Positions 6,537 through 61,446 of a stretch of DNA of 64,000 nt are shown in pieces. The translations under genes and the position numbers were made by a program. This DNA is from Marsupella aquatica. Taxonomy: Eukaryota > Plantae > Marchantiophyta. Position 1 is the stretch's first letter. The number at the start of each line of letters is the position of its first letter. The notes beneath the pieces are model-generated. The model made no database searches. It was not told the origin of the DNA and was given only the letters and a program-made list of their open reading frames with translations. Where the stretch lies: NCBI GenBank assembly GCA_973895155.1, contig OZ316891.1, positions 14,105,037 through 14,169,036 of the forward strand, read 5' to 3'.

Positions 6537-6541
6537 GGGGG

Positions 6542-6962: not shown

Positions 6963-6964
6963 AT

Positions 6965-6976
6965 TGGTATCAGAGC
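6965..6976 (+). promoter_or_regulatory. Primer binding site (tRNA-iMet)
   Basis: TGGTATCAGAGC 2 nt after the 5' LTR, the canonical plant copia PBS. Confidence 0.92.
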
Positions 6977-12424: not shown

Positions 12425-12604
12425 AGTTTTCTTAAACATTCATTGTAATTACTGATATATGCTCTTCCTCATTCCTATGTATTAGGCTACGGCTTAGTTC
12501 TGGTTTGCTCTAGTTAGAGAGGGAAACCGGTTTGGTTTCTGTCCAGAACTTCCCGTTGAGGGATCATATACATTGGCAGTATTACTCTCCCCTAGACCAG
12601 AGTC

Positions 12605-12614
12605 AAGGGGAAGA
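12605..12614 (+). promoter_or_regulatory. Polypurine tract
   Basis: AAGGGGAAGA immediately before the 3' LTR. Confidence 0.85.
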
Positions 12615-12615
12615 T

Positions 12616-13036
12616 TGTTGGGTATTTACTCTTACGTCTAGGTTAGGTATGACGTGGTTGGTACAACAACGTGGGTTGGTACAACTACGTGGTTAGGTAC
12701 AACTACGTGATTAGGTACAACTATGTGGTTAGGTACAACTACGTGATTAGGTACAACTATGTGGTTAGGTACAACTAAGTTGCACACTATATCATAAGAG
12801 GCATGTGTGTTTGGAGAGGTAGAACCAAGGCTCATTGTTATGGAGCCACTTGAGAGATAGAGAGAGCTTACACTGTGGAGACTCGGTATAGCCGACGGGC
12901 TTAGAGTTCAGTAAAGCTCTCTTGTGTGTTCCCGTGGACGTAGCCTCAAGGAGGTGAACCACGTATCTCTTGTGTCGACTATTGTGCGTTGGATGGTTCA
13001 TGGGCTTGCCGTTGCGATCGTCGTCTATGCTCAACA
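12616..13036 (+). repeat. 3' LTR of copia element 1
   Basis: 421-bp near-identical copy of 6542-6962. Confidence 0.96.
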
Positions 13037-33410: not shown

Positions 33411-33665
33411 GATTTATCGCTGCTGCTCAGTGGTCTGATTTGCAGGCAAGCTAAGCGCAAGCCTTGAACAACATCCCTTCCGATCGTGCACAACTATGAG
33501 GTGAATTGTGGGACCAAACTCTCTTTCCCTCTCCTGAAATCGCTTTCTTCCGTGAAACACTGAAACCCCAAATCACTCCATCCGAAATGGTGCAGCACCA
33601 TGCTCTCGATCCATACAGCTCAAGTTCAACATGGTAATTTTATTTCTTTTCCGAGTTATCACACG

Positions 33666-34699: not shown

Positions 34700-37130
34700 T
34701 CAATCTCCTTAGTACTTGATAAAATCTGTTAATGTTTGATTCATTGGAAAACTCAAGATCAAGATTTAGAAACTCGTGACCTCTTTAGTATTGTCTTGAT
34801 AAAATCTCTCAATGTCACACTCATTGGAAAGTTAAAGTAAAATTAAAAACTCATCATCTCCTTAGTACTTGACAAAAATCTATCAATGTTAGGTTCATTG
34901 GAAAGCTAGAGAAATTTAGATACTCATGATCTCTCTAATTCTTGACGAATAATCTCAATGTCACACATTAGAAAGCTAGAGAGATTGAAAACCTCATGAT
35001 CTCTTTAGTATCGTGACAAAATCTGACATAAAATTTGTCAATGTCGGACTCAATGTTGGAAAGCTAAAAGAATTCATGAACTCATGATCAATATTTCTTT
35101 TACTCACACTCATTGGAAAGGCAAAGAAATTCAAAAACTCATTTGGAACTTGACAAAATTTGTCAATCTGAGGCTCATTGGAAACCTTTTTCAATTAAGA
35201 GCTATCACAATCTCATCACCGTCACAAACTTAGCCATTGAAAATTGATTTCTTTGATTATGTCACCATCCCTTGTCCACAATGCTTGCTTCCCGGCTTGA
35301 ATTGTTCGCATTCCTCTAGTTTTCAACTGAAGCTAGCTCACTCTGAACACAGGTTGACGCCAAATGCAGCCTCTATGTCAAAGAAACAATTGTTGGTTTC
35401 CCTCTCACACCATAGCTTTCTTAAATAACAAACTACAAATCCTTCATGTGAAGCGATGACTCGTTTGTTTTGTGTGTTCTTCCTACCGAATTAACAAGCG
35501 CTCTTTTGCCAATAGTTAAGTGTTGTTCTCCAGTCTGTCTTGTGGCGGTAATGCTCAATGTAACTCACAAACGATCAATCATGAATGATAGAAACACAAT
35601 TTCTCCAATGTGTAAGCAAAAACCGTCAAAAAACTCAATTCCTCCATGTTCAACCTTCCATTGATAAATCTCCTCTATATTTTGGGCGTTTTCTTTTGTA
35701 CGAGCACACACCAAAACCATCGGGAAACTCAACACCGTCAATTACCGCCTTGTTGAAAATTGATTTCACTTCATCAAACACACATTCCTTGGATGAACAT
35801 GGGGGTACACGGATTAATTGTTTATTATGATCATGTGCACAGAGCATGTGGGCTTATGGAGCAACCTGGAAGATGAAGCTCAGTTGGATGGGCTCAATAA
35901 GTAGCGTGGAAGATGAAGTCAATTGGATCTCCATATCAATGTTAATCGTGCTTCCCCTAAGTATGAATCTCTTCCACCTTCACGATCATTGAAGTAATTG
36001 TGGATCAACTTCAATCTTGGATCCTTTCCATGTTGTGTGTCATTATTGATCTCTAGCTTACGTGTTTCCAAATCATTCTCTAACTATAAACCCAACCCAA
36101 GCATATATCCCACTACATGAATGTCATTACCGGTTACTTTCCCTCCATTCCTTTCAACATTTTACATTACTTAACTTGGAACTTTACGTCTAGATGACCC
36201 ACAACCCATTTCCAATGACCCTCATCTATGGTTGAAACCCTTGGTGTGCTTAGAATGCTAGAAACATTTTGACAGAACTTTCCAATGAGCCTATTATTGT
36301 CACATATCATCAAGTATCAAAGGGATCACAATTTGCAGAATTTCTATACCCTCTTTTGCAAGTCGAGCTATGGCGTCCACAAAAACAATTTCAAATTTCC
36401 CTTGATCTCTTGATGAAATATTTGGTGCTTAGAATTTTTTTAACTATTTTTTAAAGAGCTTTCTAATGAGCCTTGCCATATTTTGTCAAGTATGAAAGAG
36501 CTCAAAAATCTCTAAATTGTTCCATTCTTCCTGAAAAGTCTAGCTATGTCGTCAACAAAAATCCCATTTTGAATTTTGTCCATCTCTAATAAAACCTTCC
36601 CTCTCTAGAATTCTTAGAAAAGTGTTTTAAAAGAGCTTTTCAATGACCCTAACATTTCTAGATTTCATCGACTACTAAAGATATAAGTTTTCAAATATCT
36701 CTAGCTTTCCAATGAGCCTGCATTGACAATTTTTGTCACTTACTAAGAAGACCATAAGTCTAAACCCAACAAGCCTAACATTGGCAAATTAGTCAAAACT
36801 AAGGAGATCATGAGTTTATGAATTTCTCTACATTTTCAATCTGATGCAACTTTTCATCATTTCCGGGCGGTTGGGCTCCGCAATCCCTCCACTTCCTCTA
36901 GTTGAAAGCCCGGTTGAAAGAGGCACAAACAAAAATTTAATCTTGTGTAAAAAATGGCTTTGACAAGGGCTTCAAGTTTTTTATTTCCAATTTGTCCCTT
37001 CATTGCTTATTCTATAGTAGCCGTTGACGGATTTTGTCAAGTACCAAGGAGATCATGATTTTATGAATTTCTCTAGCTTTCCAATGAGTGACATTGGGAG
37101 ACTTTATCAAGTACTAAAGAGATCATGAGT
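34700..37130. repeat. Two oppositely oriented arrays of a degenerate ~65-75-bp unit (34700-35190 and ~36270-37130); possible foldback-like element
   Basis: Left units CTCATTGGAAAGCTAGAGAAATT..CTCATGATCTC..TAGTACTTGACAAAA; right units TTTTGTCAAGTAC..GAGATCATGA..AATTTCTCTAGCTTTCCAATGAG (reverse complement). Confidence 0.6.
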
Positions 37131-38547
37131 TGGGTCACACATGGTGCCAAAGATTTTGGAAAGAATTTCCATGGGGTTTGTAATGACCACATAGCCATAG
37201 TGATAACGTGATTCAAATGATAGTGTGTAATAAACCAAATGGCTTAGACTAAGTAGCAACAATGTGTAACATGAGAGTGCACTCAATCTCGATCACTACA
37301 TCAATAAGATAATAGAATGAAGAAACTCCAAAAGGATCCATAGCATGAGAGAGTACTGCCAAGAATGAGGAAAAGAATGTTCTCCTGCCAACCTATATCC
37401 CCCAAGGGATCGAGACAAAGATATGTGGGCCAAAATAAGTGGATCTTATCCTAAATTAGTAAAGGGTGAACTAACCCTAACAAGGCCAAACTAACTATGA
37501 TTGAGAACCTGAGCCAATTCCAAGCACAATGGACTTCCACAGCCACAACTTGGCTGCAGTGACAACAACAACATAGTCGCATTGATAAATTTGAAATAGA
37601 CACTTGACATAATGATAAAGTCAATATGGGCTCAAAAGTTCACTTTGTTTCAACGTACTTCCTACCACAATGATTTCCTTACCTCAAAGATACCCTAGCA
37701 TCCATGATGCCTAAATACTTCAACAACTTCTTTGGCTTACCTTGACATCTTTTGTGCAATGCATGGGCATTAGGCTCGTCTACATTATAATTTGTCATCT
37801 AGGTATTTGCTTCACAACATACTCCATAGATTCTAATTTCTTGGGTGACGGCAAAGTTTGATATTTAGACTTTGCTTGTGAGTAAGCACAGACATGGGAG
37901 TTTGAGTACGGGAGCCTTACTATTTATATGCATAGGTGTTGCGGCTAGTCACAAATATTGGGATATGATCTAGACCAAACGAGACAACATTAACATGTGT
38001 GAACATTCATCCATAGACTTCGACACTAAAAGTACATGGTTCACCCCGTCTGGGCTTTGTCCACGGCCGTGAGAGAAATCCAATAATGCAAAGTGATTAC
38101 ACCGGCCATAGCCAACGCGCTAGAGCTCCTCCTCTCACTCTCTCACTCTCTATCCTCAAGATCAAGTGAACCTTCAAGTGTGAGCACAAGTTTGTGTTCC
38201 CCTTGGGTATACCCCCTCCCATGGTCTATAGGAACCTAGAACTCAAACTAGTGCTAGATCCTAGTTTATTGAAGTCTAGCTAGTAATGTGGAAGTATATA
38301 GGTTATACTAGAGGCATACCTAACAAACTCCCCATTGACTCTAGTGCTTAGCTAACTACCTGGTAACCGTGTTACTTCTAACTAGATCCGTATGAATCTC
38401 TTTGGGAAGTTCTAGAAGGTTAAACCAAGGAGTTTTTCCCTCTATACCTAAGAGCTAACTAGAACTAAGTCATAGCTGACAAAGTGTCAGATATAGTAGA
38501 CATACATAGAAATAAACTACCTATCTAGTATTAGCTCAGATCTTGTT

Positions 38548-38905
38548 TGTTAGATATTGCTCTAGTCTTGTGACTCATAAGCTAACCATAGTTAGTCTAA
38601 CTCGGGTTAGGACTTAGCTAATGTTAGCGGTAGTGCTGTTGTGTATTAAGCCAGGGCTGATGCCAGACCCTAGTGGAACTTAGGTTCATTGTTATAGAGC
38701 TAGTTGAGAGATAGGGAGAGCTTGTGCTGTGGGGTTTGTGCTGTGGATGCTTGGTATGGCCTGTCGGCCTAGAGTGCATTAAAGCTCTTGTGTGTTCTCG
38801 TGGATGTAGTCTCATGTGGAGGTGAACCACGTATCTCTCTGTGTCGACTATTGTGCATTGGATAGTTCATGGGCTTGTTGTTACAAATGTCGTCTATGCT
38901 CAACA
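38548..38905 (+). mobile_element. Solo LTR related to copia element 1
   Basis: TGTTAG...GCTCAACA with TSD TTGTT (38543-38547, 38906-38910). The 3' half (GGTGAACCACGTATCTCT..GTGTCGACTATTGTGC..GTCTATGCTCAACA) is close to LTR 6542-6962. Confidence 0.88.
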
Positions 38906-39040
38906 TTGTTAACCATATGTATCTCCTCATGAAATTCTAAACAGAAAACCTATGTTTCCCCCTTCTCTATGAGGGTTAACTAGAATTAGACCGTAGCCGG
39001 TACATATCGAATGGAAAATACACATACAAGAGAACTAACA

Positions 39041-41587
39041 CTAAGCATCCTTGTGCAAAAAATTAAAGCCTTGCACAATGCTCCGTGAAACTAGCCAAAG
39101 AGGAATGACTTTGGTTAACATATCAGCAGGATTGAGTTTTCCATCAATCTTTATTAACTCAATCTCTTTCTCAGCAACAGTTTGTCTGAGAAAATGATAC
39201 CTAATATCAATGTGCTTTACCTGGCCATGCGTTACTTGGTTTGCCGCAATATGTATAACACTATTGCTCTCACAATGAAAATCCACCTGCTCTTATAGAG
39301 TCCCCAAATCACGAGTCAACTTCCCCAACCAAATATATAGTCTCCTTTGCTGCCTCTGCTAGTGCTACATACTCAACTTCAATAGATGACTGAGATATGC
39401 ATTTTTGCTTCATGCTCGGCTCCATGGATCTCCAACTTACACATCCACCTGCTAACATGAAAGAACACCTTGTTGGACTCTTCTGTTGATCCAAATCACC
39501 ACCATAGTCTAAATCCACATATCCAACAAAAGACATCGCATTGTTTGAATGTGCATCAAACAACAAACCAACCTCAAATGGGTCATGTAAGTACCTTGGG
39601 TTAACCATGTACCTACTCACCACGCCCATAGCATGCGCTATCTGGTCTAGTACTGGAAGCAACAATGCATATGCCTCACATCCAAACACACGTAATCTCG
39701 TGTAATCTGCAGGTCTCTTGGGCCACATCTAAAATGGATAATATTGATAACTGCAAAATATAATGTTACCAGATAAGCTATTGTGTTGACAGCTTCAACC
39801 CAAAAGATCTTTGGTAGACCTGCTTGGCTTAACATACTTCCATATCTCTCCAATAGTGTCCTATTTAGCCTCTCAAAAATATCAATATGTTGAGGAGTAT
39901 ATGCATTGGTCAAATATCGGGTAATGCCTTCACGGTCTAAGTAGAGGTGAAACTTGTTAGAGATATATTCACCTTCATTGTCTGAACGAAGATATTTCAC
40001 CTTCTTTCCTACTTGTGTCTCAACCTGCATCTTCCACTTTTTGAAGATTGAGAAATTCTCAGACTTCTCATGGATAAATTGCACCTAGATCATCCTTGAA
40101 TAATCATCAATAAAAAACACGTAATACTTCATTCTTGACATTGAGAGCTCAAATAATTCTCACACATCATAATGAATGTAATCCAAAATATCTTTAGAGG
40201 TATGACTGGCTCCTAAGAAACTTACACGATGCTACTTACCAAGGACACGGTGTTGATAAAACCCCAGCTTGCACAATTTTGCACCTGGCAAGAGATTATG
40301 TTTTACACATTCAGCCCTTTCTCATTCATGTGACCCAATCGTGCATGTCACAATTGTGTCTGATCCAACTCTGATGAAACTACATTGGCACTACCAAGAA
40401 TCATGATGCCTACCAAGATATATAGATTACCCTGCTTCCTATCTTCCATCACCGCTAGAGGACCATGTATGACTCTCAAAACTCCACTTGTTGTACTCCA
40501 TTCACAACCAAATGTGTCCAATGCTCCCAAAGAGATCAAATTTTGCTTCAAATCTCAAATGTGATGAACATTCATCAACGTACGGACAACTACATCAAAC
40601 ATTTGAATGCACACTATACCTATGTCAATGACTTAACAAGGTTGATTATTCCCTATCATGAGGTTCCCTGATTTTGGCTCATAGGTGCAAAAGGTCTTCC
40701 TATCATGACACATATGAAAGGAATGTAGAATTCAAAACCCACTTCGGTCTCCCACCTTGAGAACCGGTACATAAGGCAAAACCAACATCATCATCAGAAG
40801 GAATAAAACTCGTCTGACCTTGAATGTCACCACCACTCTTGCAATTCCTCTTAATGTACGTGGCCCTTCTTATCACATTTTCAACACTCAACACTCTTTG
40901 AGTCACGTAACTTTGATCTAGCCTTGGTTTTACCAAAAGAACCTATAAAATGCTCTCGTGATCTGTCCCTAGTAATTACTAGTGCTGATCCAGATGAAGA
41001 AGAAGAACCATTGTGCATCTTCTTTTGCATTTTGTTTGACAGCAAAGTGTTCACTATCTCATCATAGGTCAACGTTGTCTTGCCATACAAGATTGTCTGG
41101 AGCAGGTTTTCATATGAGCGTGACAAGGAAGTAAGCAAATCAAGTGCTTTCTTCTCATCCTCCACCTTCTCATTGAGACTCATCGATTCTGCGATGATTA
41201 AATTAAAATCATCAATACATTTGTGCATAGTTTTACCTTCAGCCATCTTGAAATTCATCAACTTCAAGCTTATGTATAGCCGATTTGTCAACAACGTCTT
41301 CTCATACATCAGCTTCAGTTGATCCCACAACTTTGTAATTGTGTCCTCCGTCATAACCTAAAATAAAACTTCAGGTGGCAAGTGGAACCTAATCAAACTG
41401 AGAGCACGATTGCCAATGTCTTCTCACTCCTCATCAATCATGGAGGATGGCTTTGTGCTAAATGTTGAATCCAAGCCTTGGGAAAGAAGAACGTCTTTTA
41501 TTTGTACTTTCCATAATGTGAAGTTATTGCACGTGGGGAATTTCTCCACTTCATGTACTTTGCACTAGTCACCTTCCGGGAAGCCAT
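39041..41587 (-). pseudogene. Degenerate copia gag-pol; most of RT deleted
   Basis: Gag (LLTSLSRSYENL), PR-like KWVLNS, IN (RSDNEGEY, ERLNRTLLE), then YTRLRVFGCEAYAL joined almost directly to IAHAMGVVSRYM and RH (KHIDIRYHFLR); many frameshifts. Confidence 0.88.
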
Positions 41588-42368
41588 GACAATGTCCCCT
41601 ACTCTTATATGCAATGTATTCAATCTAAGCTACCAAGGTGTTTGTAAGGCTGCTAAACCGTATTGGACCCTCCAAGGGGTATAGCGACCGAGATAGCAAA
41701 CAGGCAAACAGCAAATACTTTTCCTGTTTGCCTTATGCTATTACCAGGAAAAAACATCTTGTACTAGGGGGAAGAACACACAATCAGGAGTTTAGAATTG
41801 TTTAAGTTGGAGTTAGTCCATTGCGGTGAGGGAGGATACCATGTCATGAATCGCTGAACCACATAATAATTGAACCTCATATCCCAACACAAACAAGGGG
41901 GAGCATACATAAAAATGTCAAGGAATGCGCACAAAAATGGTAGGTCCCACCACAATCGACAACAAAATATATAAAAATAATACAAAATGAATGCATCCCA
42001 AAACTTTATGGTATTATATGGTCCAAAATAAAAGCGAACAACGTGTTGACTAGCGTCTGGCGCTATCTTATCGGTATTTCAGGAAACAAATAGTTGGCGT
42101 TGAGAACATCAAGCACAACATGATGATATTTAACGGTGTAGCCTAAATGACAAAATTATCAGCGCCTGGCGCTAACAAAACATGACGCGACATAAATAAC
42201 ACTTTTCCGTTGACATATGATAAAATCAATATAACCATTTGGACCAATAATACAACCTACATCATCATGATTCATGCTATAAACCATGAGCATTTTGCCT
42301 CTCTAATATGAGCCGAACCTCTCCAACAGTGAGAATTGGTTGGCTGGTCAATGTAGATTCCTCAACGT

Positions 42369-44619
42369 CTAGTTTGAAAACGGTAAGGAAAATCCAATAC
42401 AAATGTTTGCAAGGCATATATGGATGTTTCTGAGAATGTTGCCGGTAGAAATCCTCACACGAGCAAGTGGGAAAATGCAAATTTGAACAAAGTAACAATT
42501 TGGCGTCCGCATATTTTCGTGCGTTTGCACCTTAAACTGCTTTCCCCATGCATTCCCAATCGCAACATCCCACTCTCCCTGAATGGACATCGTCTCTTTT
42601 TTTGCAGACGCAATTCTGTTCATGTGACCCTGGGTAAGATTTGACTGAGGAACCGTATTCCTCCCATTCCGGCTTCGGAGACGAACATTGGGTTCGACAA
42701 GATTCACATGTTCTAGAAAGATATTGACATTGATTCGAAGATCAAAATCTGACGGGGGTGTAGTTGTACGTTCATTTCCGCGCACTAGGGAGATTCCGTT
42801 GTCAAGAAGATATTGCAGCTCGTCTTCCAAAACATTTGTCCCTTTCAAAATGGGAAGAACATCTGGGAAAGGGGGCAGGTTCAATACACCTCGACGAGGG
42901 CGGCTTCTGTAACATGTATTGTTTGGGCAAAACCAAATCATTTCGGTTATGGGTTCCCCCCTAAAAATGCGTTGTCCTTTGACAACAACACCGATAACAC
43001 CATGTGGTGAGGGAAATCCAACTTTTTTCACGCGATTGCGACACTCATCTCTTTCAGAATTACGGGAACTATTCAGCGCGATAGTTATGATCGTAAATAT
43101 GCGCACTAAAAGTAACCCAGTCTTTTGTGAGTCGTTTCATCACATCAAAACTTACCCAAGAACCTTCGAGACTTCCACCAGGTTGCATTTGTCTCAAAAG
43201 ATCGACGCCTGATCCATGGCCGATCGAAGTCATCTTGAATATGTGAGGACGGTCTTCTTGAGGCCCTTGACCTGGTAGGAGGTACCTTTGGAGGAAAGGC
43301 ATGTTGATATTTCTTTGATACCGAACAAGAAAATCTAGTTCACCTTGACCTTTCTGGTCCTGTCTAACACTACGAAAGAGGGACGCAAACTTCCGGGGTG
43401 TGGAAACTACCATGAGCGACTCAAATATCTCGGTTTCTTCAATATCTTGAATATCTTCCACACTTTCACACAAGGACTTTACAAAAGATCCTGTCGCCAC
43501 ATTTTTTACACCAGCAGGAGTGAAAATTGGATTTCCTTCCAATTTCTTTTTGATAACCTCCTCAACAATCTTCTCTGCGCTCCGAGAAAACACCTTTCTT
43601 GAAGGATGGTTGTGCATCCCCATATGAATTGCCAAGCGGGACATGTGAGTACAGGTTTCTGAGTCAACTAGAACTTGGGGGTACATGTAAAATAACCTTG
43701 CTAGACAAGATTGGACACAAAATGGAACTTGATCACAAAATTGGCAAACAACTCCACCTTTATCAATGAAGGAGCCAACACGATGTTGCCCGCCAAGTTT
43801 AGGGGTTCCACCCCAGGCCTTATGGTTCCTCTTTTTCTTCCGTCGAAAATAGTCGCAAGTATTATTCCTACACTCAATGGAACCAGTGCACGTTACTTTA
43901 CCAAATTCCCAATATTTCTTGGGATGAACATTAGCTGATGTAGGAAATATTATGGTCCAGATGTAGCAATCCTTCGACCGGTCCATGTCGCGTAGACGTG
44001 ACCCCTTTGAAAGAGCTCCCGCAGGAGGCAACTCGAATACAATATTTCCATTGTATTTCTTTGGCAAACAGCCGACTTGTTCATGGCAGTAGTCCCCAGC
44101 CGCGATGAACCTCGAGATTTCACTGGAACCAGTTGACTTGAGAATGGTATCCATTGCACTTCTCCGATACACAATGAAATTTTTGGTAAAAACTGCTCTA
44201 ACCTCCTGTTTAACAGGGGTAACCTCCTGTTTAACAACTGTGTGAGGGGGTTTATCACTAGACTTAGGCAAACCAGAAGGTCCATCATCGTCGCTATCTG
44301 AAAGCAAGACAACATCAACAAAGGGTTTGGATGAAGATGGGAGATCGGATGCGACTGGTTTTCGAATGACAATAGAATACCGAATTCCTGCATTCAGGTG
44401 CCAAAAATGAATCCCGTCATCAACATCAAAAGAAGCAGTGAAATTAGAGGCTTCATCTCCGTTTCCCTCCTCCAAAATGTCCTCAATGTCATTCAAATCC
44501 AAACCAAAGCGCCCACAGAGATAATTCTCACTAACTTGCTTGTATACGTCATTGGTCGACAATGGAATGGATACAAGGTCACCCGTAGATGGACGCGTCA
44601 GAACGATTGACCTCGACAT
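42369..44619 (-). pseudogene. MULE-type transposase with GCM/WRKY-like Cys/His DNA-binding domain; catalytic core apparently deleted
   Basis: ATG 44619. CTGSIECRNNTC..CQFC..C..SCLARLFY..RLAIHMGMHNHP, then SWVSFDVMKRLTKDWVTFSAHIYD (first-Asp strand region of a MULE RNase H fold). The frame ends at 43069 and a C-terminal segment (WFCPNN..PDVLPILKGTNV) follows in another frame. Confidence 0.62.
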
Positions 44620-45563
44620 TGTAAGATCATCCAACCCAAAAACACTCAGTTCACAATAATGAATGACGTCTTCGAATGCACACAATGATATTCATAGTCA
44701 ATAATCCGTTTGTCAGAGCCGTTAGAATATGACAGAATCACTACCGGTCGAAACCACATCTGACACAATAAATGTTTTTTGTCATTATGTCAACGACATT
44801 TACACCAATGAGCCTAAGATGTCCGTTTACGAAGACCATAATCATGTTTATTAAATCATCTTAATTGAGTAGCGTCGGGCGCTACTCAAACATCATCACT
44901 CCAACATGGACCCAAAATGGTTCAATATATGTTTAGCGCCAGGCGCTACTCAAACCCACACCCTAAATTGTGGTATAAAACTAGAATATTTTATTCGGGG
45001 TTTCAGAATAAATCCTAATGTTTGTAGCTATTTTCCAAATATTATCTAAAATTTTACCAAAATGTTCCCATTTAATATTAGCGCTGGGCGCTAATCTGAA
45101 ACGGTAATCATGACATTCATTTAAGGCAAAATATTCAAAATTTGTATTCATTTTGTTTTTTATTTTATACTTCAGGGTCAATGTTGGCCTAACTTAGGGA
45201 AATTTTAGGGTTTGAATATTGATCGTTTTGGGTAGCGCCAGGCGCTACCATTGACCAATATCAGATTTGACCTAGGAATATAGATTAAAATAACCGAACT
45301 CTTCTTTAACGGTCATATTCAACGGTAACGTTAGGTCGCGTAACGTTGAAGATATGCCAACGATATTCTAAACCACTAATCCAGAATTGACAAGTGGCGC
45401 TCAGGAGAATGTCGTAAATAGATATCAATGTAGCGAGTGGATAGTTTAGAGATGATACTCTCCCCACCTCCCTTGTCCGCTGTATTTAGGCTCCGTTTTG
45501 GAGGTTCTTCGTGCAAGAATTCTCTAGAAGAAGTACGGTACGAATGAGGTACTCAACACGATC

Positions 45564-48500
45564 ATGAAGCACTTCGTGTGTGGGCAAAACATGGACCCTC
45601 TCCCCACCACCTCGCATGGGTATAGTGCTAACGGGCAGAGAGAGCAGATCCATTCCCAAACATCCGAGTGCTCGTTTTCTGGATCTGTTTACAGTCGTCG
45701 TGTGACACGGTCTACAGCATCCCAAGATCCTGAAACAATCACGGTAGTCACATTTCTGAAGAGCAGGAGAGCGAAGATGGACGATCTCGACACATACGCT
45801 GTGGAAGATCGAGCAGAACTGTCACTAACGATGTCCGACGTTATCTCCAAGCACGTTATGGTGTTTGGCAAGGATTTTTGAGGGCACGACAAAGACCCCC
45901 CAAGGATTCCAATGTGCCGCTTGGTTCACATGGAAGTTGTCCGCACCTTACAGAAGGGAAGTCCTTCAATTGAAAAGTTGAAGGACTCTTTTTGTAGCAC
46001 AGGATACAACTCAAAAATCGGAATGTTGTTCTATGTCCAGCCGGGAGATTCGAATGGGAATGTCCAGACGTGTACTCCAGAAATTCGAGCGACCTGGGAC
46101 CCTGTGTGGGTGGCCGAGAACGAGAAGTTTGAAGTTGAATGTGCGGCCGATCTAGACTTCATGGTGTTACAAGATAAGATGTTTTACATTTTTGACGGTA
46201 ACCATTGACTTTACGCATGGTCGATCGTTACAAAAGAAAATCCGGAAGATAGCAAGTATCACCCGCGTGTGCAATGTACTATCTTCAAGGGTGAAAAGGG
46301 ATCTTTGATTGAAATTGAGGCGGCTATGCATACTGTGAACCAGTAAGTCTCTCTTTGAATTTCATCTATCCTTATCTTTTATAGTGTAGTTTTTACTAGC
46401 GCCTGGCGCTATTGACTGACAAATTCTTCTGTAGACTTGGACAGGCCGTGGTGGAACCTTCCTGGATACTTGATGCAGACCGAATTAAGAGGATTTTGTC
46501 CAACGATCTAGAATACTACAAATCAATCATGGATGGGGCAAACTTCAAGAAGTTTGGGCAGGTGATGCAAAAGACTCGAAAAGGATCGTGGTATTCCAAG
46601 AAAATGCCTCAAGAAGCACTTATGTATATCTTATGCGAGAATAAGATTAAATCCTATTCTCGACAATTCAAGATGGACATGGAGTCGGCTACCGCTCAGG
46701 GAAATCCTTGGTCTCAGGAAGAGACATCCAAACGACATGCGGTCATGATGAAAGAAGCAACGAAGGATTGGGCGATCAAGGTCTCAAAGATCACTCCCTT
46801 GTTGAGTCCTGAGTTTGAAGACTTCATGACAACCTGTGCTGAGATGTATCCAATGACAGAGGTGAACAAACGTGAGAAGAAACCGGATGCGGTTGTCTGT
46901 ACCATGGATCGTGCCAAGTTATTTACAGCAGTCTCCGCCCTCGACCCCAAATTGAGGAGCACTTTGTTAGTAGCGCATTGCACGCCAGAGCTTAGGAAGC
47001 AGTTCTTTCATCCGCAAAGCGTTAGCGATGACCCTGTGAAGCAGTGGTGCCACACTTGGCAAACTTGGAATAGCGTGGAGGGAATTGCCATTGGTATGCT
47101 GCAGACTGCCCTCCAGCAAATCAGTGAAATAATTCCTTCCAATCGATTGGAGGAATGGAAGTGTGAGTCTTATGATTCACTCGTTGAAATAGTGTGCAAT
47201 GATCTCAAAAAATTTGGGGATGCAGTGAAAGGTAAGTTTTTCAATACGATGTGGATGTCCAAGTACACGGACAAGGAAGACTACACACTCAAGAATCAAA
47301 AGCGAGCGAAATGATATGTCTATCGTTTCTTCATGCACATGGAGATTGTGAAGCCTGACTATTTTTGGGCTTACCCAGCTGCTTTCCAAAATTGGGTCAT
47401 CTGCACAGATGGAGACATTTTGGCCGAACTATATTCGATGTATCCCGTTGAGGGTATACTTCCACCGAGAAAATTGTCTGAGTGGGAGAGAATTCACTGC
47501 CCTTGGTACCTTGACACCGACAGATGGGATTCTCCTTTTGACGACACTGAGAAGGATGCTTTCCATAAACTGTCTAAATCCCAAGTTCTGAGATAATTTG
47601 TCTCCGACATGAAGCAAGGAATTGAGGGGGACGTCAACTCGTTGACGACTGAGTTGCAAAAAAAATGCAAAACCACAGTGGTTCATGTTGATCAAAGCCG
47701 TAAACCAAGAGCCAAAGCCAAGGCGGATGCCCCTGTGGCAAGTGCTAGTGCCAAGTCTGGGAAAAAACGTAAGCTACACCTCCTTCTTCCGACTTCCTTC
47801 TTTGTTAGCACCTGGCGCTATCATGTGTCGTAAGTTTAATGTGTCTTATTTCCCAAAATTAATGTGGGTGTTTAGTCAGCACCTGGCGCTAACACTCTTT
47901 CTGTGATTGACACCATTTTTTGGTAGGTGGTCGAAAATCTGATGCCGCCACGGATGACACAAAAGTCGATGCAACACCAGAAGTTTCTGAGGCCAACACT
48001 GGTGCCAATCCAGACCCCATCACCCCCGTTGAGAAGGGGAAGGTTATAGTTCCTGTGGATGCTACAAGCACAAAGAAGAAGAAGAAGAAAAGGACCATCG
48101 ATGTCTGGGAATCGTCGCGAGATAATGCTTCTTGGGCCGGTATCCAACGGGATGTGGGGACTTTCAAGACTAAACTCGGAAGACACTGTATGGTCAAATC
48201 AAGCTTGGCATAATTCATTGATAGTGCATTTAGTAAGGAAGAGAAGCCAGATTGGGTCTCAGACGCTGAGAAGTGGGGTAAGGATTTGATCAAGTCGAGG
48301 TGTAGAGATAAAGGAATCATTCCAGGTGGGAAGGAACGATCATTTGGGGTGAATGCGGGTTTCATCTATCTCCCAACTGGTTTGAAACCCACAATTGTTG
48401 ACCGTCGGGTCCTGAAATGGAATATCACAGATCACACAGCAGCCGAATCATTCTTTCGGGCGATGGACCCTTTCCTTTCCGATGACGGCATGCTCGCTAT

Positions 48501-49738
48501 CTTATACTCGGATGACCACGACCAGATTTCCCAGGTCATTTCTGCATGTCAGCAATCCAAGAAGTTCATGTGCATCAATACGCACAATGTTTTCATGTCT
48601 GTCCCAATGTACAGATCCAAGACAGATGTCCAGGTAAATGTTCTCTATACTAGCGCCCGACGCTACTCTTTCTTTCTTAGTAGGTCTTCTCTCATGAATA
48701 ACAGATTTTTAAAATCCAGTTGGTTTGTCAACTTTTGCAGGTCTTCACTCTTAGACTGGATATATTTTGTCGGGTTTCTTTTAAAGGAAAGGTCCCAAAG
48801 GATCCAAGATTCAAGCCGTTATCTAGCGTTGAAGATCCTTCAATCTCAAACCTTATTGGGCTACAATCTTTGAAGGAAGATCATTGTCCTGAACTCCATT
48901 TTACTGGGAATTCTCGACTACCGGTTGGTTTTATGCAAACTGTCCTTGAACTCTTTACGATACCTAAGGATATTGTAATTGATTGGACCGTCGGCTCAGG
49001 TTGTACATTCATTGCTGGGGATTACTCAGGCTGTTTTGTCATCGGGTTAGAAAATTGTCGGGAGTTTGTTGAGACCGCTTCGAGGATTTTTTTGGATCTC
49101 ATTTCTCCCAAACCTTTGGAGACACAACCTCCCCCTTCTCAAATAACCGGACGAAAAAAGAAAGATAGACTTAGATCTGTCCTCAATTTTGATTCGGACG
49201 AAGATGATGGGACGCCAGAAGATGATGGGACGCCAGAAGATGTCAATGACAACGGGAAAGAGGAAACCCGACATGATGGGTCAACGGAGGACAGCGAAGA
49301 GTCTTCCGAGTAATTTTCGTCTCTCGTAAGCTCCTTTATCCTTTCAATTGTTGGCTAACCATCAATTCCACCGGTTCTATCTGTTAAGTACTTACTTCCT
49401 CTTTCTCTTCCGATTCTCTTTTGAACAGATCAGAATGGAACCAAAGAAAACGGTTTCAACTCCGAAGGAAAGTGGCTCGAAATGTAATCATCACTCTCGA
49501 GAAGCCGTTTGTGTTGCCATCATACGCTAAGAACATCGCGAGGAAGGTAGAGAAATTTAGAACGCTCTGCTGGGAAACAAAAGGACTTAGGCTTCTTAGG
49601 GGAGTAGACAGGAAGTTCATGAGGAACCCCTACGTAGATGATGTTTCTAGAAGCAAGTATATTGATGATGAGGCAGAGTCGACCGACAGATCTCATAGCT
49701 CCCAGAATGAGAGCTCAAAATCTGACACTGAAGGGTAG
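45564..49738 (+). pseudogene. Transposon-borne ParB/Srx-like + beta-class N6A/N4C DNA-methyltransferase-like fusion gene (5 exons, ~1232 aa, 5 in-frame premature stops)
   Basis: GT-AG exons 45564-46342, 46435-47768, 47927-48633, 48741-49309, 49429-49738 total 3699 nt in one frame. Stops at 45879, 46206, 47312, 47594, 48211. Motifs FYIFDGNH*LYAW (ParB/Srx DGxHR), VNAGFIYLPTG (degenerate motif IV), FLSDDGMLAI, LPVGFMQTVLELFTIPKDIVIDWTVGSGCTFIAGDYSGCFVIGLEN (motifs X-I-II). First ATG and last exon are less certain. Confidence 0.72.
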
Positions 49739-52700
49739 CAATTTTCTCCTCTATCAGGTCAAACTTCCTCCCAACTGTACGAGTATGCCCTTGGTTTTTG
49801 TTAGCGCCGGGCGCTATTGAATTTATTAAATATGAATTGAGTTTGATGGAGGTTGCCCCTTCCATTCAATGGTTAATGTGGTCTTTAGTAACGTCCTTTG
49901 TGTGGGTTCCTCTCCTTGTTTAACTAGCGCCCGACGCTCCCCAAAAAACACGTTTGAAGTTTCCGTTTGATATTTGTCGTTTCTGCCATAGTGTCATTTG
50001 GCTTTCAGTCGGCGACTGGTACCGTCAAGAGGACCAATAACAGGAAATCCAAGCCCCTTATAAACATACTATTGTTTCTTTCAAAGTCCATTGCTCTCGT
50101 TCTTCTCCTTCTCAATTCCATGGAAGGCCAGTGTATCGACGGCCCACGAGAGCATATGTCAACTTCCGATTAGATGGTTTCTGCCATGAGCCAGATCGTC
50201 AGGACGCTGGGATTGATGATGACTGTCACTCTTCGAGCTAGGGCATTGTACGAGGAATCACCCACCGGGAGTATTAGCGCCTGGCGCTAGTTACAATTGC
50301 ACTGGAAACTTTAGTGTTCCTATGTAGCAATATTTGTACATCAAGGACAATATGTTTCACTTAAATAAAAAAGCTCGGGTTTCTTTTCTTTCAATTTCCC
50401 GTTAGAAGTTATGACTCAGATACCTTGGTTAAGTCCTACTTCTGTGCTTTGATATTGAACTTAGACTATTAGTAATCTTTGGTTTCTACTTGGATCTCAG
50501 CCTGAACATCAATCCTACGTTCTCGTGATTTTCTCCACAAAGCACTAGAAGCGGCCGGCTCTAGTATTCGGCATGTTTGGGCGATTAATGTTTCATTATT
50601 TTGGGTTCGCACGCCCGGCGCTAGTATTCGTTATGATGCGTTTGTAATTGTTTTGCCTGTAGACTCCCAGCGCTAGTATTCGGCATCGCATAATTATCAG
50701 TATTTTAGGAACGGGTTTTTTTAATTTTGCCACAATACCAGGAGAAATGTGCTCCCAAAACAGGAAATTTTGCTGTTACCAATTCCTGTTATAGTTTTCT
50801 GTTTGCTGTTTACTGCCTTTTGTAAACACCTCCCTCCAAGCAACCTTACTCAAAAAATCTCCAAAAAATGAAAGTGATGCAAATCAAAAACTGATTTGAC
50901 CTTCTTGTAGCCTGCAAGATAACCTTTCCATAACACCAAACAACTATGCAAACAAACACTCAAGCCAAGAGTTATCAACCACTGACCGCAAGGGGGTCAA
51001 AATATCATTTTGGACCCCTTCAAGGAATCTTTTTAATAAAATCTTCCACACACCTTTGTTCCTAAACCTATTTTTCAGACCCCTCCCTAACTCCCCCACA
51101 CCCCTGCAACAAATCTCAAGAAATGAAACACGTTTGCCTTGTCGAATCCCTAATTTACCGTTGAATTTTAACATTTTGGAGAATTGGGAATATAGTGAAT
51201 AAAAGTACAGGGGGCAAAATGCCCTATGGCACTTGCCACAAACAGGACAACGCCTGTTTGCTCTACACCCCATCACCCCAAGTGCCCTACCACCCTTCCC
51301 ATACTCGGCTGAACGCCCTTCCCATGCCCTGCCATGCAGCCAAAATCAAACCCACTTTGATTGCCCGTATCTCGGCCATCCATTCATTTGATCTCTAATT
51401 TATATGGTTGGAACGAGCGCAATGAGATGTTTTCAACAAGCTATGGACAATCCAAGATCATGACTTTCAGAAATCAACCTAAATTTGTACAATTGTACGT
51501 CCGTCGCTTTGAGTTCCCGACTACATGGCTGCCTGAGCTTAACAACCAACTTCAAAATCAAGTTAGTGGTTGCACACACCACCAAAGTATTTGCTATTTG
51601 TTGTAAATGGATCCTCGTCCCGTTTGTAACTCCCTGGATCAAATCAATGACAAAATGAACAATCAAAACCCGGATTGTGCTCACATTGAAGAAAGTCGTT
51701 GTTGAACACAAAGAGAATTCTTCCCACCTTCAAAATGTGCGCAATCTTTGGCCTACACAACACAGGAATAGACCAAAGCCTATGCTTCTCCGCCCTAGGA
51801 GAACATTCATACTCACATCCCGCACCAAATGCCACAAATTGGTAATGATGAGCCCCAAGCGCTTCTCAATCTCAGTCCCCAAGCTCTTATACCAATTGTT
51901 GGGATATGATCTAGATAGAATGAGATAACATTAACATGTGTGAACATTCATCCATAGACTCCGACATTGAAAGTGCGTGGTTCATCCCGTCTCGGCTTCG
52001 TCCACGGCCGTGAGAGAAATCCAGTAATGCAAAGGGATTACACCCGCCGTAGGCAACACGCTAGAGCTCCTCCTCTCACTCTCTATCCTCAAGAGTGAAC
52101 CTTCAAGTGTGAGCACAAGTTTGTGTTCCCCTTGGGTATACCCCCTCCCGTGGTCTATGGAGACCTAGAACTCAAACTGGTGCTATCCTGGTCTACTGAA
52201 GTCTAGCTAGTACTGTGGAAGTATATAGGTTATACTAGAGGCATAATCTAACAACAAAAAACCTGATGCTCACTTTAGCCAAGATACACAATGTGTAACC
52301 CTCTAAATCTGATGAAAGTTGCAACTTTTTATACCCAAAGTGAGACCACTTAATTATACAAAAGAAATATACCAGTTGACCTTGAACAATGTTTGCAAAT
52401 GGTGCATCCAAGTTAGTTTTCAAACATTGTGGTCCGTTTGGGCTACGCTTTTGAGTCACTACACAATCCTTTTCCACATGTTTTTTTTGCGATTAACTAA
52501 AATAAGGAAAACATACTACAACATTGACTAGTCATTAAAGTAAGAACATAAGAATTCTCAAATACTGCCCTAAACACAATTCTACCATCTTGGTCATTAT
52601 GGTGCCCTTTCCACCATTTCTAATGATTACCAAAAGGGGCACCCATAAATTTCCCATGTGACCTGAATTTGTACTTCAGCTGCAAAGTGTAGCCTCTTGA

Positions 52701-56725: not shown

Positions 56726-59700
56726 ATGGGACTGAAAGACAAAGAATGGATCAAGGTGGTCACGCTCACAACGACTGTGGCCGCTGCGGGTGTTTCCCTG
56801 GCAGCGTGGAAGGTCAGTTTGGTTGGTGTATCTATGAATGAGTAAATGCTTGCTTTGGTCTTGCCATTGCACTTTTCTTTGCTCGGTTCGCATGCGGCGG
56901 ATGGAATGGGGATGATTTGGTTTGATTTGATTTGATGAGAGGCTGAAATTTCCAAGGGTGGACGCCTAGTATGTGATGATTATTATTGCATTTCAGACCC
57001 ACTCTCTGACGAATCCAAAGTGGCTTGATTGACGCTCTACTTGGTGGGAATCGATTGGATCTCTTCAATTGAGTGCGTGATTGTCATTTGGTCCGTTTTC
57101 GACCGAAGATTTGCAATGTTTGGAGAAGTTAATCGTTCTGGGTTTGTTGATATGCCAGATCTACGTGAAGCAGTGGCTGAAGGGAGGCCATAGAGACCTA
57201 CTCTATTCCTTAGCATATGCCGGTTCTCGTCGTTCATTGCCGGCTCGTTTCGATCATTCCCTGAGCGCTATCCACACAGAAGGTTCAAAGTATCCAAAGG
57301 TGCTAAGAACGCAAAGTTGCCCTATTTCCTCCTCAGATCTAATGTCTGGGTGTTGTGTCAATCGTATGTGAGTTCAAAGCAAAGTCATTGGTCCTATTTT
57401 GCTCTTTCAGTCATTCCCAGCCACCAATCCAAAGTCATCGAGTGCAACGGAGCTCTCACTGTAGAGCAAGGTGAACTTTTCAACGTCGTATATTACTTGA
57501 TTTCAATTCCATTTACCCACAACAAATTCGTTCCGTTTCTCGACAGGTTTACTCTGTAGGAGGACATGGGACTTCCTCAGAGTATATGGAGGTGTGGGTT
57601 CTTGATCCTGCCCTGCGTGGATGGACAGAAGTTCTTCCTGCTGCTAATGCTGATACCAAGCAAGCCGTATTTGCCAACAGGAGATGTCATGCAGCAGCCG
57701 GTACTGAAGATCTGGCCGACATTTATAATTCTTCATAGTACATTACAAGTTTTTACTTTAGAACTGCAGATTCTCAAGTTTAGAAGGTAATTGATCATAA
57801 ATTTGAAATGAGGTAGAAAGTCCATGACATCTAATGATGGGTATATTTTTTACTTCTATGTTAAAATTTTGTGAAATAACGAAGATTAGCTATACTGCTC
57901 GGATCGCAAATTCTGACGATTTCTCGAACTCCCGTGGTACTTTTCTCTTAGGTATTGGAAGCGACATATACGTGATCGGAGGCATTACAAATAAAACTGT
58001 GGTAATATACAGTTCTGCATTCGTATTGTTGCCAGTCGGTCAAGTTGTTCATTCTGGCTCTATACGAGAGAGTGCTATAAGGTGTCAGTTCTTACTATGT
58101 CACTCGCACGTGAAGTTAGTTTCAATGACATACGTATCCTTCTGAGTTTTCAGCAACAAAAGCCTGCCTTAGGTGGAATCGAGGGGTTTTCACCGAATCT
58201 GAAAATCATATGATCTTTGAAGTTGTATGTTCAAAATGGTTTTGTTGGCCTGGCATCTTGAAATGAATCTTCGCTGCAAGTCCTTATATTTCAGTTCACT
58301 TGAGGTTTTCAGAAGACTTAATGATCGATGTGCATCTTCCACTAGGGTGATGTATTAAAATTCGATACGGAGAAACAAAGGTGGAGCACTCCGTCTTTCA
58401 CAGGGTATCTTCCCCAACCTCGGTCAGGGCACTCTGCCACAGTTGTTGGCAAGAAAGTTGTAGGTGACAAACTTCATATCCTTGAAAGCTCACTAGTGTG
58501 CAGATTGCCTAGGGTGGATTTTCAGCTGAATAGAACAATGGAATCCATGCCTAAGCTGAGTTGCTCTGGATTAGTAATCGTGCAGTAAGTCGTGACCTCA
58601 TACTGTTTGTTCACGTGAACCAGTACGTGTTTGGTGGGCAAGGAGAAGACTCAGCTCTAAATGATGTCAACATCCTTGACACAGACAAGGGATCATGGTG
58701 AGTGTTCTTCAAGTGCTTTAGAATGCGTCATTTGTATTGTGTGCGATTTCTATTCTTTGTTCCATTAGTTGTGGATGGTTTCTCTGCACGCCGTTTATGT
58801 GCAAATCTCTACTGGAGATAGTCTACAATTAGAAACTGCTGGGCGAGAGTAGTGTGATAGCTTATCCACGCTATTCAGTGGAAAGAATAGTTTCCTTGAA
58901 GCAGTCCCTTCGCATAGAGTAGTGCAGTAGGAGATGGTCGACGGCCAATCCTTTGACTTTGAAACAGGGCTAAAGTTATCAAAACTGAACTGTTTTGCGC
59001 ACTGTTTCCTTTCTCAGGACAACTCCCGCTGTGTTGGGATTTCCCCCAGCACCCCGTTTTACTCACTCTGCTGTACTTCTTGAAGATGGCGAACGTATTT
59101 TGATATATGGGGGTCATACAAACACTGCTGAAAGTGATATATGGTTTCTTGAAGTAATTTTCTGCCTTTCCTTTGGACAGTGTTGCATGAATTTTTAAAG
59201 AACACCTACGGATTTCATACCCGCCTGATGGTACGGGTTGTGGATCATGAGTTCCCCCCGTGTTTTTTTTTTGTTTTTTGTTTTGTTTTTGAGGGGGGGG
59301 GGGCATGGATAGAAGCGTTGGTAGTCGCTCGACAGTACCAACCAGTTTAAAATCTACTTAATTTTCTAGGTTAGAATTATCCGTTGTTGGAAGGCTCACT
59401 TCTAATGTGTCCTCGCAATGATTTTGTGAATTATTGAGCTGATCATTGCTTAGTCTGTGCGGGGAAACAGCTCTACAAGCTGAGATTAGATATTGTTTAC
59501 AGTTATTGCAGGTTCTCCCGTCCAATCATAATCTCACACTAGTGAATATCAATTGCAGATTGCCACGACCTATGTCAAGAACCAACGGGAGCTGTTAGGA
59601 AAAGAGGTTGTCGCATGGAGCAAAGGTTCAATCGGTAAGAGTCCACAGCCGGTTGTCATCTGCGGCCCCTCAGGTGTAGGTAAAGGCACACTTATAGCAA

Positions 59701-61446
59701 AACTCATGAAAGAATACCCAAATCAGTTTGGATTTTCTGTAAGCCATACCACTCGCAAACCAAGAAATTTGGAACAGGACGGTGTGCACTATCATTTCAC
59801 CCAACGTGCCGCTATGGAAAAGGATGTTAGGGAGGGTAAGTTTCTGGAGTCAGCAGATGTCCATGGAAACCTCTATGGAACAAGTATTGCAGCAGTACAG
59901 GCTGTGGCTGATGCGGGAAAGGTAACAAGCCTTTTGCGTTGTTCGTTTTTTCAAATAAAAACAGAAAGACATTGAAGAGTAAATTCTCTTAGTTTTTCAA
60001 TATCCTTTGGTTAACGTTCCTTGACGTTTTAGTGCTCTTAATTAATATAGATCCTAACCTCCTTTGCATAGACATGGGATGATTGTTCTTGTTATCTTCT
60101 GTGCTGTAGTCAAGTAATGTAAATAGAGTGTAGTCAGTGTCTTTTTGTGAATATCTTTCCTTTTGATGGCCCTAATTGAAACTGCTCCCCTTTCCTTGCA
60201 GAGATGTATTCTTGATATTGATGTACAAGGGGCTGAGCTCGTGAAAAAGAGTACATTGGATGCATTATTTATCTTCATAAGTCCACCAACTTTTCAAGAA
60301 CTTGAAGCAAGGCTACGCGGAAGGTGGGTACAATTGTGACACTCAAATATTTGTATTGTTTGTTGTAAATGAAATCGTTTTTGAGCAATCACTAATTTTT
60401 CGTCTCATATGCAGAGGCACTGAAAACGAAGAACAGGTCCAAAAGAGGCTACAAAATGCAAAAGCAGAGATGGATCGGAGCAGTGATGCCACTCTCTTCG
60501 ACCACTTATTGGTCAATGATAAGATCGATGATACTTACGATCAGCTGAAGGCAAGAGACCCTCCTGTTTATCGTTCTTTTGAGGACCAAATGTTGGAATT
60601 TTGCTGTGTGGTATTGATCCTCTGCTTTTTCCTGTTGCAGAAAATACTGGGCTTCGGAACTGAAGCTTTGGAAAATGGAGTATACGGACTCGGTATGACT
60701 TCCTGCCGCAGTTTTATCTGTATTGCAGTAAGAAAAAGTGTCTCTTTCAACAGAGTACATGAAAGATCAATTGATTTAAATGCCCGAGAGGGAGGTTATC
60801 AAGTTAAGTTGAGCTTAGAGGAGCGACCAAATATTTGAAACTAATTGGGATTCATACTAAGTACTATTAGAATCTGTTATGGCTTGTCTATTTTTCAGAA
60901 GAAATGATACCAGAAGCAAGATCAGGCCATTCTTCAACAATTTTAGAATCCAAGGTCGTTGTCTATGGCGGTCTCACGAGTGCAGGAACGCCAAGCAACG
61001 ATTTGTAATGCCTCCACCTTCTTCCTTATTTAAACTTTGCGCCGCCGCTACACCTACTGAAGTGTTGGTCCGTTACGTTTTAATTATCACCTATGACGGT
61101 TGTGCTAATGTGGACTGATCAGGCAATGTGCATGTAAGTACTTGATACGTCGGCTAACTCCTAACTTCACTGATGGAGGGTCGATCTTGCAACTTGCAGA
61201 TTGGCCCTTGATACTTCAAGACTTACCAGTGGTGCTCCTACGACAACCAGAGGATTGTTTTGGTCACGTCCTGAGCCAAAGTTTGACCTTTGGAAATACT
61301 TGAACCTCTCACCGTCCCTTTCTCCAATGTACAAGCACAGAGCGGTTCCGCTAAGTTCAACAGAAATGCTTTTGACTGGAGGATATGATGACGAGCAAGC
61401 TCTGAATGATAGCATAGTCTTGAAGTTAAGCAACGAATCGTACTGA
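56726..61446 (+). CDS. Guanylate kinase with Kelch repeats (plant cytosolic-type GK), 13 exons, ~593 aa
   Basis: Exons 56726-56812, 57159-57299, 57547-57700, 57952-58001, 58346-58459, 58624-58697, 59018-59153, 59559-59921, 60202-60323, 60415-60550, 60641-60692, 60899-61004, 61200-61446 total 1782 nt. GK motifs [36 protein letters not shown]; Kelch motifs PRSGHSA, YVFGG, PRFTHSA. The first two exons are less certain. Confidence 0.9.

Follow-up and report, generated by a model that had tools for sequence, protein, structure and literature searches.

A decayed transposon gene for a predicted ParB-like and methyltransferase-fold protein in the liverwort Marsupella aquatica

The gene and its transposon

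The stretch analyzed here, referred to as the window, comprises 64,000 nucleotides (nt) of the liverwort Marsupella aquatica (assembly GCA_973895155.1, contig OZ316891.1, positions 14,105,037 to 14,169,036, forward strand). A first-pass annotation had proposed that eight small open reading frames between 45564 and 49738 form one hidden gene of about 1230 amino acids (aa), encoding a ParB/Srx-like domain fused to a beta-class amino-methyltransferase (MTase). Three-frame translation of 45400–49900 bore out the single gene. Five exons joined across four GT-AG introns yield 3699 nt, or 1232 aa, with exactly five internal stops, at aa 106, 215, 553, 647 and 800 (coordinates in Table 1). The product is colinear with Riccia sorocarpa R1sor_027256 (P0157, 1207 aa), itself a predicted gene model, over 1087 columns with 26% identity (E = 3e-76), and the RNPYVDD motif of exon 5 is shared with R. 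sorocarpa R1sor_008990. This ParB-MTase gene is the second gene of a transposon and is divergent from the transposase gene. The earlier reading described a real gene but missed its context as transposon cargo, which explains the nature of the gene.

The donor of intron 1 was found at the same phase-2 position in all five related metagenome loci that hold the junction (L001–L005), and 53 of 88 exon 1 matches reaching residue 250 stop at most 2 residues from this intron. In L002 the intron is 818 nt long and unrelated in sequence, rejoining at KLGQAVVESSW. Introns 2–4 are supported by their GT-AG ends, the reading frame and colinearity with the Riccia protein, and diverged family copies depart from the window sequence from 47767 onward, at the edge of intron 2. 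Conservation is the ground on which the four introns are considered to be spliced.

The element is bounded by CCCTCCAAG, a 9-mer with exactly two occurrences in the window (41668 and 50832) that form a perfect 9-bp target-site duplication (TSD). Alleles of the family were read from contigs of related public sequencing runs (X1, X2, X3 and others), which cover the region many-fold. A contig of X2 (depth 463) joins 41667 to 50832, the form expected of related Copia copies without the insert. Summed contig depth in X1 was 1,500–15,000 across the element compared with 83 for a unique flank contig, figures that are not copy numbers. The insertion point lies in the leader of a minus-strand Copia, between its 5' long terminal repeat (LTR) and gag. 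This older host Copia extends over 37952–52254 with LTRs 88% alike, and a piece at about 38673–38905 resembles the LTR of the first Copia of the window.

Long terminal inverted repeats (TIRs) were not found at the element ends: 23, 54 and 76 of 500 shuffles reached the scores of the terminal 60, 100 and 150 bp, and the ends share just short CAAACAG words. This fits the non-TIR type of Mutator-like element (MULE). The 9-bp TSD falls within the 8–11 bp given for Mutator-like elements in passages of PMC5735166 and PMC6446971. From these sequence features, the element is likely a non-TIR Mutator-like DNA transposon. Two other assignments were rejected. For a Helitron, the hairpin at 50990–51020 falls outside the TSD-bounded element; it has 12-bp near-perfect arms and stands just beyond the element, at the start of unique-sequence contigs. 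Crypton-type direct termini do not fit, as the repeat is a TSD and an empty-site joint was seen. In the right arm, a GC-richer stretch at 50120–50270 has an ATG and coding-like text with a stop, and may be a third small gene or a captured fragment.

The 5' part of the transposase gene is 52% identical to P0188 over 372 columns, up to DHNYRA. Relatives of the transposase run on past this point (LCTIFTCEL..GFMADN..DAFH). The GFMADN..DAFH part matched nothing anywhere in the window, so this copy lacks the transposase core. Family contigs carry an extra G at 42468. The SWIM finger scored E = 0.021 in Pfam, below the cut-off, and Pfam gave no MULE match for the gene, while Atlas leads at 0.75–0.79 pointed to ZSWIM1-3_RNaseH-like/MULE/ALS2CR8. 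FDVM..MADN..DAFH of the relatives was likened by eye to the MULE pattern, with the third acidic residue not seen.

Among 40 listed differences, most of the family depth has CGA (Arg) at stop 46206, GAA at stop 48211 and G at 45564. The ATG at 45564, first taken as the start, is thus GTG in most family depth, with small indels at 45577 and 45585; it was given up, and the true start is uncertain. The stretch 45564–49738 is a decayed copy of a transposon gene.

Table 1. Features of the transposon and its two genes, in window coordinates
Feature	Position	Strand	Remarks
Left target-site duplication CCCTCCAAG	41668-41676	.	9-mer twice in window; 41667 to 50832 joint in X2
Mutator-like DNA transposon (likely), multi-copy, without real TIRs	41677-50831	.	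9,155 bp; TSD, empty-site joint, depth
Right target-site duplication CCCTCCAAG	50832-50840	.	second copy of 9-mer
Transposase gene, 3' part	42283-43074	-	SWIM-type finger (CSC..PCKH); frameshifted near 42468
Transposase gene, 5' part	43075-44619	-	Cys/His-rich N-terminal region, first catalytic-strand motif FDVM; ends after DHNYRA
ParB-MTase exon 1	45564-46342	+	low-complexity N-terminus and predicted ParB/Srx-fold domain (PMCR, DGNH[R], MHxxN); stops 45879, 46206
Intron 1	46343-46434	+	GT-AG, phase 2, 92 nt; one palindrome inside; position common to L001-L005
Exon 2	46435-47768	+	helical hairpin inserted in a predicted HTH-like unit, followed by a helical domain; stops 47312, 47594
Intron 2	47769-47926	+	GT-AG, 158 nt; two palindromes inside
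Exon 3	47927-48633	+	linker and first half of predicted beta-class MTase fold; FIYLPTG 48361-48381; stop 48211
Intron 3	48634-48740	+	GT-AG, 107 nt; one palindrome inside
Exon 4	48741-49309	+	second half of predicted MTase fold, motif I (DWTVGSG), motif II Glu, then acidic tail
Intron 4	49310-49428	+	GT-AG, 119 nt; without palindrome
Exon 5	49429-49738	+	C-terminal tail with RNPYVDD
15-bp palindrome TAGCGCCNGGCGCTA, up to 2 mismatches	42051, 42160, 44870, 44934, 45079, 45233, 46397, 47806, 47877, 48651, 49802, 49925, 50275		
15-bp palindrome TAGCGCCNGGCGCTA, 3 mismatches	50549, 50609		

Predicted folds and active-site motifs

The N-terminal model was that of Riccia P0159, not of the window copy, and its predicted local distance difference test (pLDDT) score is mostly above 85 over residues 11–170. 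In a structure search of this domain, the top five of 48,161 chains were KorB, PadC, Pnob8 ParB, Srx and SerK (Z 5.3–7.4), all of the ParB/Srx superfamily, to which we take SerK to belong. KorB was aligned over 93 residues with Z 7.4 and a root-mean-square deviation (rmsd) of 2.6. The superfamily's Gxx(H/R)R nucleotide-binding motif and downstream Asn were both found, the Arg codon at 46206 being that of the family majority. GNHR is present in 86 of the 150 relatives listed, and 37 of the 150 are without that segment by the pattern used; the Asn of MHxxN is near-invariant. Compared with the ParB/KorB clamps, in which GxRR is the ParB nucleotide motif, the domain has about 9% identity in structural alignment, large insertions and GNHR for GxRR. 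By the end-points of the aligned ranges (26–177 compared with KorB 52–148), the near-invariant Asn175 would fall at KorB N146, a residue needed for CTP hydrolysis according to passages of PMC11790492.

Residues 177–307 of P0159 matched helix-turn-helix (HTH) proteins, namely DeoR (Z 5.0, rmsd 1.9, 50 aligned) and Mor, SorC and sigmaF (Z 4.0–4.2). The middle helical region, at about residues 310–590 of the model, gave no clear fold match when searched as part of the model. The front end is predicted to consist of a ParB/Srx fold followed by an HTH-like unit. As a side observation, residues 165–680 of P0157 gave an Atlas lead to fungal DUF3723 at 0.84–0.85. The passages available describe DUF3723 as a Starship cargo domain whose function is not established, and the literature search found no paper combining it with ParB; that DUF3723 is a ParB-like transposon helper is a lead.

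In the C-terminal part, motif IV (FIYLPTG, aa 850) comes before motif I (DWTVGSG, aa 1021), the beta-class order that had been annotated. An alignment search matched CcrM in both halves of the MTase region; three ParB rows of the MTase alignment (E 0.3–0.5) fell on the linker and were discarded. Exon 4 reached E = 9e-6 with Pfam N6_N4_Mtase (26.2 bits, just under the cut-off of 26.7) and E = 0.003 with M1.HpyAVI/DpnA. The Riccia P0158 model aligned to CcrM over 187 residues (Z 14.5, rmsd 4.0; Foldseek E = 2e-10), and its further top matches were beta-class amino-MTases only: M.PvuII, M.BceJIV, M.RsrI, M.MboIIA, M1.HpyAVI and rotifer N4CMT. A beta-class amino-MTase fold is thus predicted. Structure prediction had been suggested as a check of the first-pass annotation, and in homologue models it recovered both the ParB/Srx and the MTase fold.

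The residues of a DPPY-type motif IV, (D/N/S)PP(Y/F/W), are needed for catalysis. The window copy and the family majority read YLPTG and fail this pattern. All 23 Riccia proteins covering the motif have D[LM][PS][ST]G, with P in 20 and a stacking aromatic at the fourth position in none, and one fern protein has DVPFG. The motif is non-canonical, as had been noticed, and the suggestion of D-L-P-T as the more general form in the family is borne out by the Asp of the Riccia homologues. In motif I, D and GxG are retained and the Phe of FxGxG is replaced; the motif II Glu is retained. Family contigs have Ser at 49002, giving GSGST. The protein differs from the Marchantia DN4MT1 kind, whose motif is described as TSPPY in the passages available: SPPY is absent from the window protein and its relatives. 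The known beta-class enzymes CcrM, M.PvuII, M1.HpyAVI, rotifer N4CMT and Marchantia DN4MT1 share the fold and motif order. Nevertheless, they have DPPY/SPPY where YLPT or D[LM]P[ST] stands here, and here the module is ParB-fused and transposon-borne.

The Tyr codon, TAT at 48367–48369, showed no variant of 30% or more in any of the four covering runs (focused listing, 48150–48480), and it lies within an X3 contig of depth 299 that differs from the window once, at 48323 in the table. TAT and YLPT are present as first read and are not peculiar to this copy: most of the amplified family has YLPT. Because Tyr replaces Asp and the stacking aromatic is missing, the methylase is probably not an enzyme in this host's family, and its module is probably catalytically disabled there. 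The first-pass annotation had left open an active enzyme or a pseudo-enzyme; the majority Tyr favors the latter in this lineage. Judged by their motifs, the relatives that have Asp, in Riccia and in the fern with DVPF, may still be active. In diverged copies, loose ends inspected by eye preserve TGLKP..DR, with five changes that are synonymous, which hints at selection on the MTase domain.

Palindromes, base composition and relatives

The 15-bp palindrome TAGCGCCNGGCGCTA occurs 5, 11, 13 and 15 times at 0, 1, 2 and 3 mismatches, within 42051–50623. All 13 copies (15 of 15 at 3 mismatches) lie within the element and outside annotated coding spans, and none was found in the other 54.8 kb of the window; under a first-order model, 0.02 would be expected per element. 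Introns 1–3 of the ParB-MTase gene hold four of the copies. TAGCGCCNGGCGCTA was found in none of seven related loci. The L002 intron 1 has 10 copies of another near-palindromic 14-mer, and an L003 intron has two copies of a 25-bp palindrome. Own, different palindromic units were therefore present in two of the three resolvable introns of related loci, L004 having none; L001, which is cut off, and L005, with its acceptor unresolved, were left out of this count. Near the right end, at 50552–50687, three variant half-sites followed by GTATTCG (GCGCTAGTATTCG) stand 52–60 bp apart, and TAGTATT of these repeats coincides with part of the VANC21 motif YAGTATTAY. The TAGC..GCTA arms in common with the KorB OB operator are 4 bp long and were treated as coincidence.

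The observed/expected CpG ratio was 0.81 in the element (block bootstrap 0.76–0.89) compared with 0.39–0.64 in seven other segments of the window.

Searching exon 1 against 1.84 billion representatives gave 210 relatives at E ≤ 0.001. Among the 27 looked up of 150 listed, the named ones were from R. sorocarpa (9), Adiantum nelumboides (3) and A. capillus-veneris (3). A word-based search of exon 1 against longer proteins retained 0 of 417 candidates. Several searches of plasmid, phage, genome and viral contigs found no close prokaryotic donor: weak motif I matches were seen in three phage records and one plasmid record (E 0.03–0.05), and 0 of 209 candidate stretches in genome contigs and 0 of 17 in viral contigs held up. 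Of the horizontal acquisition and long eukaryotic residence that had been suggested, residence fits the relatives in one liverwort and two ferns and the common intron 1 position. Horizontal origin would rest on domain ancestry, with no close donor found in these searches. Loci L006 and L007 are decayed ParB-domain fossils.

Interpretation and known systems

The reading preferred here, with a probability of roughly 0.55, is that the locus holds the decayed second gene of a likely Mutator-type transposon, the product being a self-recognizing helper with a likely disabled methylase. It builds on the observed gene structure, element ends, palindrome distribution and alleles and on folds modelled on homologues, from which we infer binding, nucleotide use and anti-silencing. 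A dimer of the ParB-HTH part would sit on the element's own 15-bp palindromes, by analogy with ParB/KorB on parS/OB. The ParB-like protein may load and spread in a nucleotide-dependent manner. Once bound, it would protect its own family from host 5-methylcytosine (5mC) silencing at the shared promoter region, the introns and the ends or, alternatively, hold these parts of the TIR-less element for transposition, as VANC does for VANDAL. The methylase fold would serve in this family as a module binding S-adenosylmethionine or DNA, not as an enzyme.

Several points weigh against this reading. The ParB Z-scores are below 8, the tool's caution line, and the ParB/Srx call rests on consistency of the hits. 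Foldseek found no match of the ParB domain at E ≤ 0.001 (ParB, Noc, KorB and Srx appeared at E 0.36 or worse), the Pfam and PHROGs profiles recognized neither the ParB domain nor the middle domains, and alignment of the ParB domain against Protein Data Bank sequences found no ParB. The HTH match is weak and helical. The MTase model is an AlphaFold2 model of Riccia P0158, not of the window copy, with a mean pLDDT of 50, and minority subfamilies below 30% could still have Asp at motif IV. The TAGCGCCNGGCGCTA pattern was chosen post hoc, from the same data in which it was counted. The high CpG ratio could stem from youth or transfer, and stop 46206 is a C-to-T change at CpG, so at least one such change occurred in this copy. 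The fossils L006 and L007 had no linked transposase or MTase match, and linkage to a transposase was seen in this host alone.

The palindrome could also be the transposase's own site. The palindromes would then replace TIRs, and the ParB-MTase protein would do another job, such as bridging ends, partitioning excised copies or acting on host chromatin. The lack of real TIRs and the palindromes near both ends (42051, 42160, 50275–50609) as well as inside are consistent with this, and AtMu1, a Mutator transposase, is described in the passages available as binding and activating its own copies alone. Nevertheless, the two-fold symmetry of the 15-mer fits a dimer of the ParB type, the KorB OB site being palindromic in passages of PMC11790492. 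Four palindromes also lie within the ParB-MTase gene itself, in all of its introns but one, and the inverted-repeat arrays of red algae adjoin a ParB gene in the part of 10.1101/2025.02.11.637652 that was available. Transposase sites are considered unlikely. That the protein is an active, atypical amino-MTase, targeted by ParB and writing N4-methylcytosine (for example at CCNGG, the palindrome's core) or N6-methyladenine as a self mark against 5mC silencing, is judged quite unlikely, since the family majority has Tyr for Asp, the stacking aromatic is missing here as it is in Riccia, and motif I lacks its Phe. In its favor are the predicted beta-class fold, the retained GxG and motif II Glu, GSGST in family contigs, Asp in all 23 Riccia motifs, DVPF in the fern, the synonymous changes around the motif IV peptide of diverged subfamilies as read by eye, and the same role proposed for an Ectocarpus protein in passages of PMC12477816. 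Passive cargo captured in Pack-MULE style and decaying without function would account for the five stops, the internally deleted transposase and the degenerate catalytic motif. This is very improbable given 210 relatives (those with names being from one liverwort and two ferns), the absence of the two checkable stops (46206 and 48211) from most family depth, and an intron 1 position kept although the intron sequence turns over.

The self-recognizing helper may be extended, tentatively, to a land-plant system of the ParB/parS type. A nucleotide-gated clamp would load on family palindromes, spread and shield against 5mC, its methylase having passed from writer (Asp, fern and liverwort) to reader (Tyr), with DUF3723 as the fungal counterpart.

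Accessory genes of this kind in transposons are already known as a published hypothesis, as a ParB-MTase gene for brown-algal Sola-1 and as ParB genes next to inverted repeats for red-algal Plavaka. Passages of PMC12477816 describe Sola1-1_Ec32 of Ectocarpus with a 1104-aa protein, ParB-like and N4C/N6A MTase, on the strand opposite the transposase, for which binding and modification of the transposon that carries it have been proposed. Compared by description, the two share a ParB and MTase fusion as an accessory gene opposite the transposase. Sola1-1_Ec32 differs in its host, a brown alga, its Sola-1 superfamily, its 282-bp TIRs and its 4-bp TSD, and those passages describe neither a catalytic motif nor palindromes. 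For Bostrychia Plavaka (PAG2/PAG3), passages of 10.1101/2025.02.11.637652 describe a ParB-domain gene beside inverted repeats proposed as its binding sites; the element also carries an N6-MTase gene (PF01555), and homologues occur in Mutator elements of Chondrus. Those are two genes, one fusing ParB with a 2-oxoglutarate oxygenase and the other the MTase with SET, and the inverted repeats form tandem arrays. The present gene instead encodes ParB and MTase in a single chain, and the palindromes are spread over the element and occur in introns as well.

VANDAL elements of Arabidopsis are likewise non-TIR and Mutator-like, with a 9-bp TSD and an accessory gene, VANC. According to passages of PMC5735166 and PMC6446971, VANC binds family-specific short motifs massed in introns, intergenic and terminal non-coding DNA, and its targets differ between families. 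A family-specific motif massed in the element's non-coding parts was also found here, and the CpG ratio of 0.81 at most hints at demethylation. The VANC motifs are non-palindromic 8–9-mers in tandem same-orientation arrays, unlike the dispersed palindromes here, and those passages mention no ParB or MTase domain. Anti-silencing is proven there for VANC and, by analogy, is proposed here for the ParB-MTase protein. ParB/KorB CTPase clamps, as described in passages of PMC11790492, resemble the present case in the order of N-terminal fold and HTH-like unit, predicted here, and in having palindromes dispersed over one replicon. A ParB-MTase fusion in a land plant or a Mutator element, or this degenerate motif IV, was not found described in the literature search, outside which lay Repbase, subscription journals and the supplements of the Bostrychia preprint.

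The algal genes were proposed, with no test reported in the passages available. The present element supplies a candidate binding site (a 15-bp palindrome, 13 copies, within the window in the element only), a series of naturally occurring active-site versions (DVPF, DLPT, YLPT) and relatives in a liverwort genus that can be cultivated, which makes the action of a ParB clamp or amino-methylase against host silencing directly testable. If the preferred reading is true, VANC-like anti-silencing would have a second route, by way of a protein derived from prokaryotes, and the gene may encode a eukaryotic sliding clamp of the CTP type.

Elsewhere in the window, a young Copia (6542–13036, plus strand) has LTRs 99% alike and gag-pol broken into three frames. 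Short repeats, both direct and inverted (CATTGGAAA...), are clustered at 34700–37130, with arms of up to 89 nt about 2 kb apart; the cluster is possibly a non-autonomous DNA element. Two intron-containing host genes were also seen, one of the SURF1 family (30780–33413, minus strand) and one for guanylate kinase (59532–60838, plus strand).

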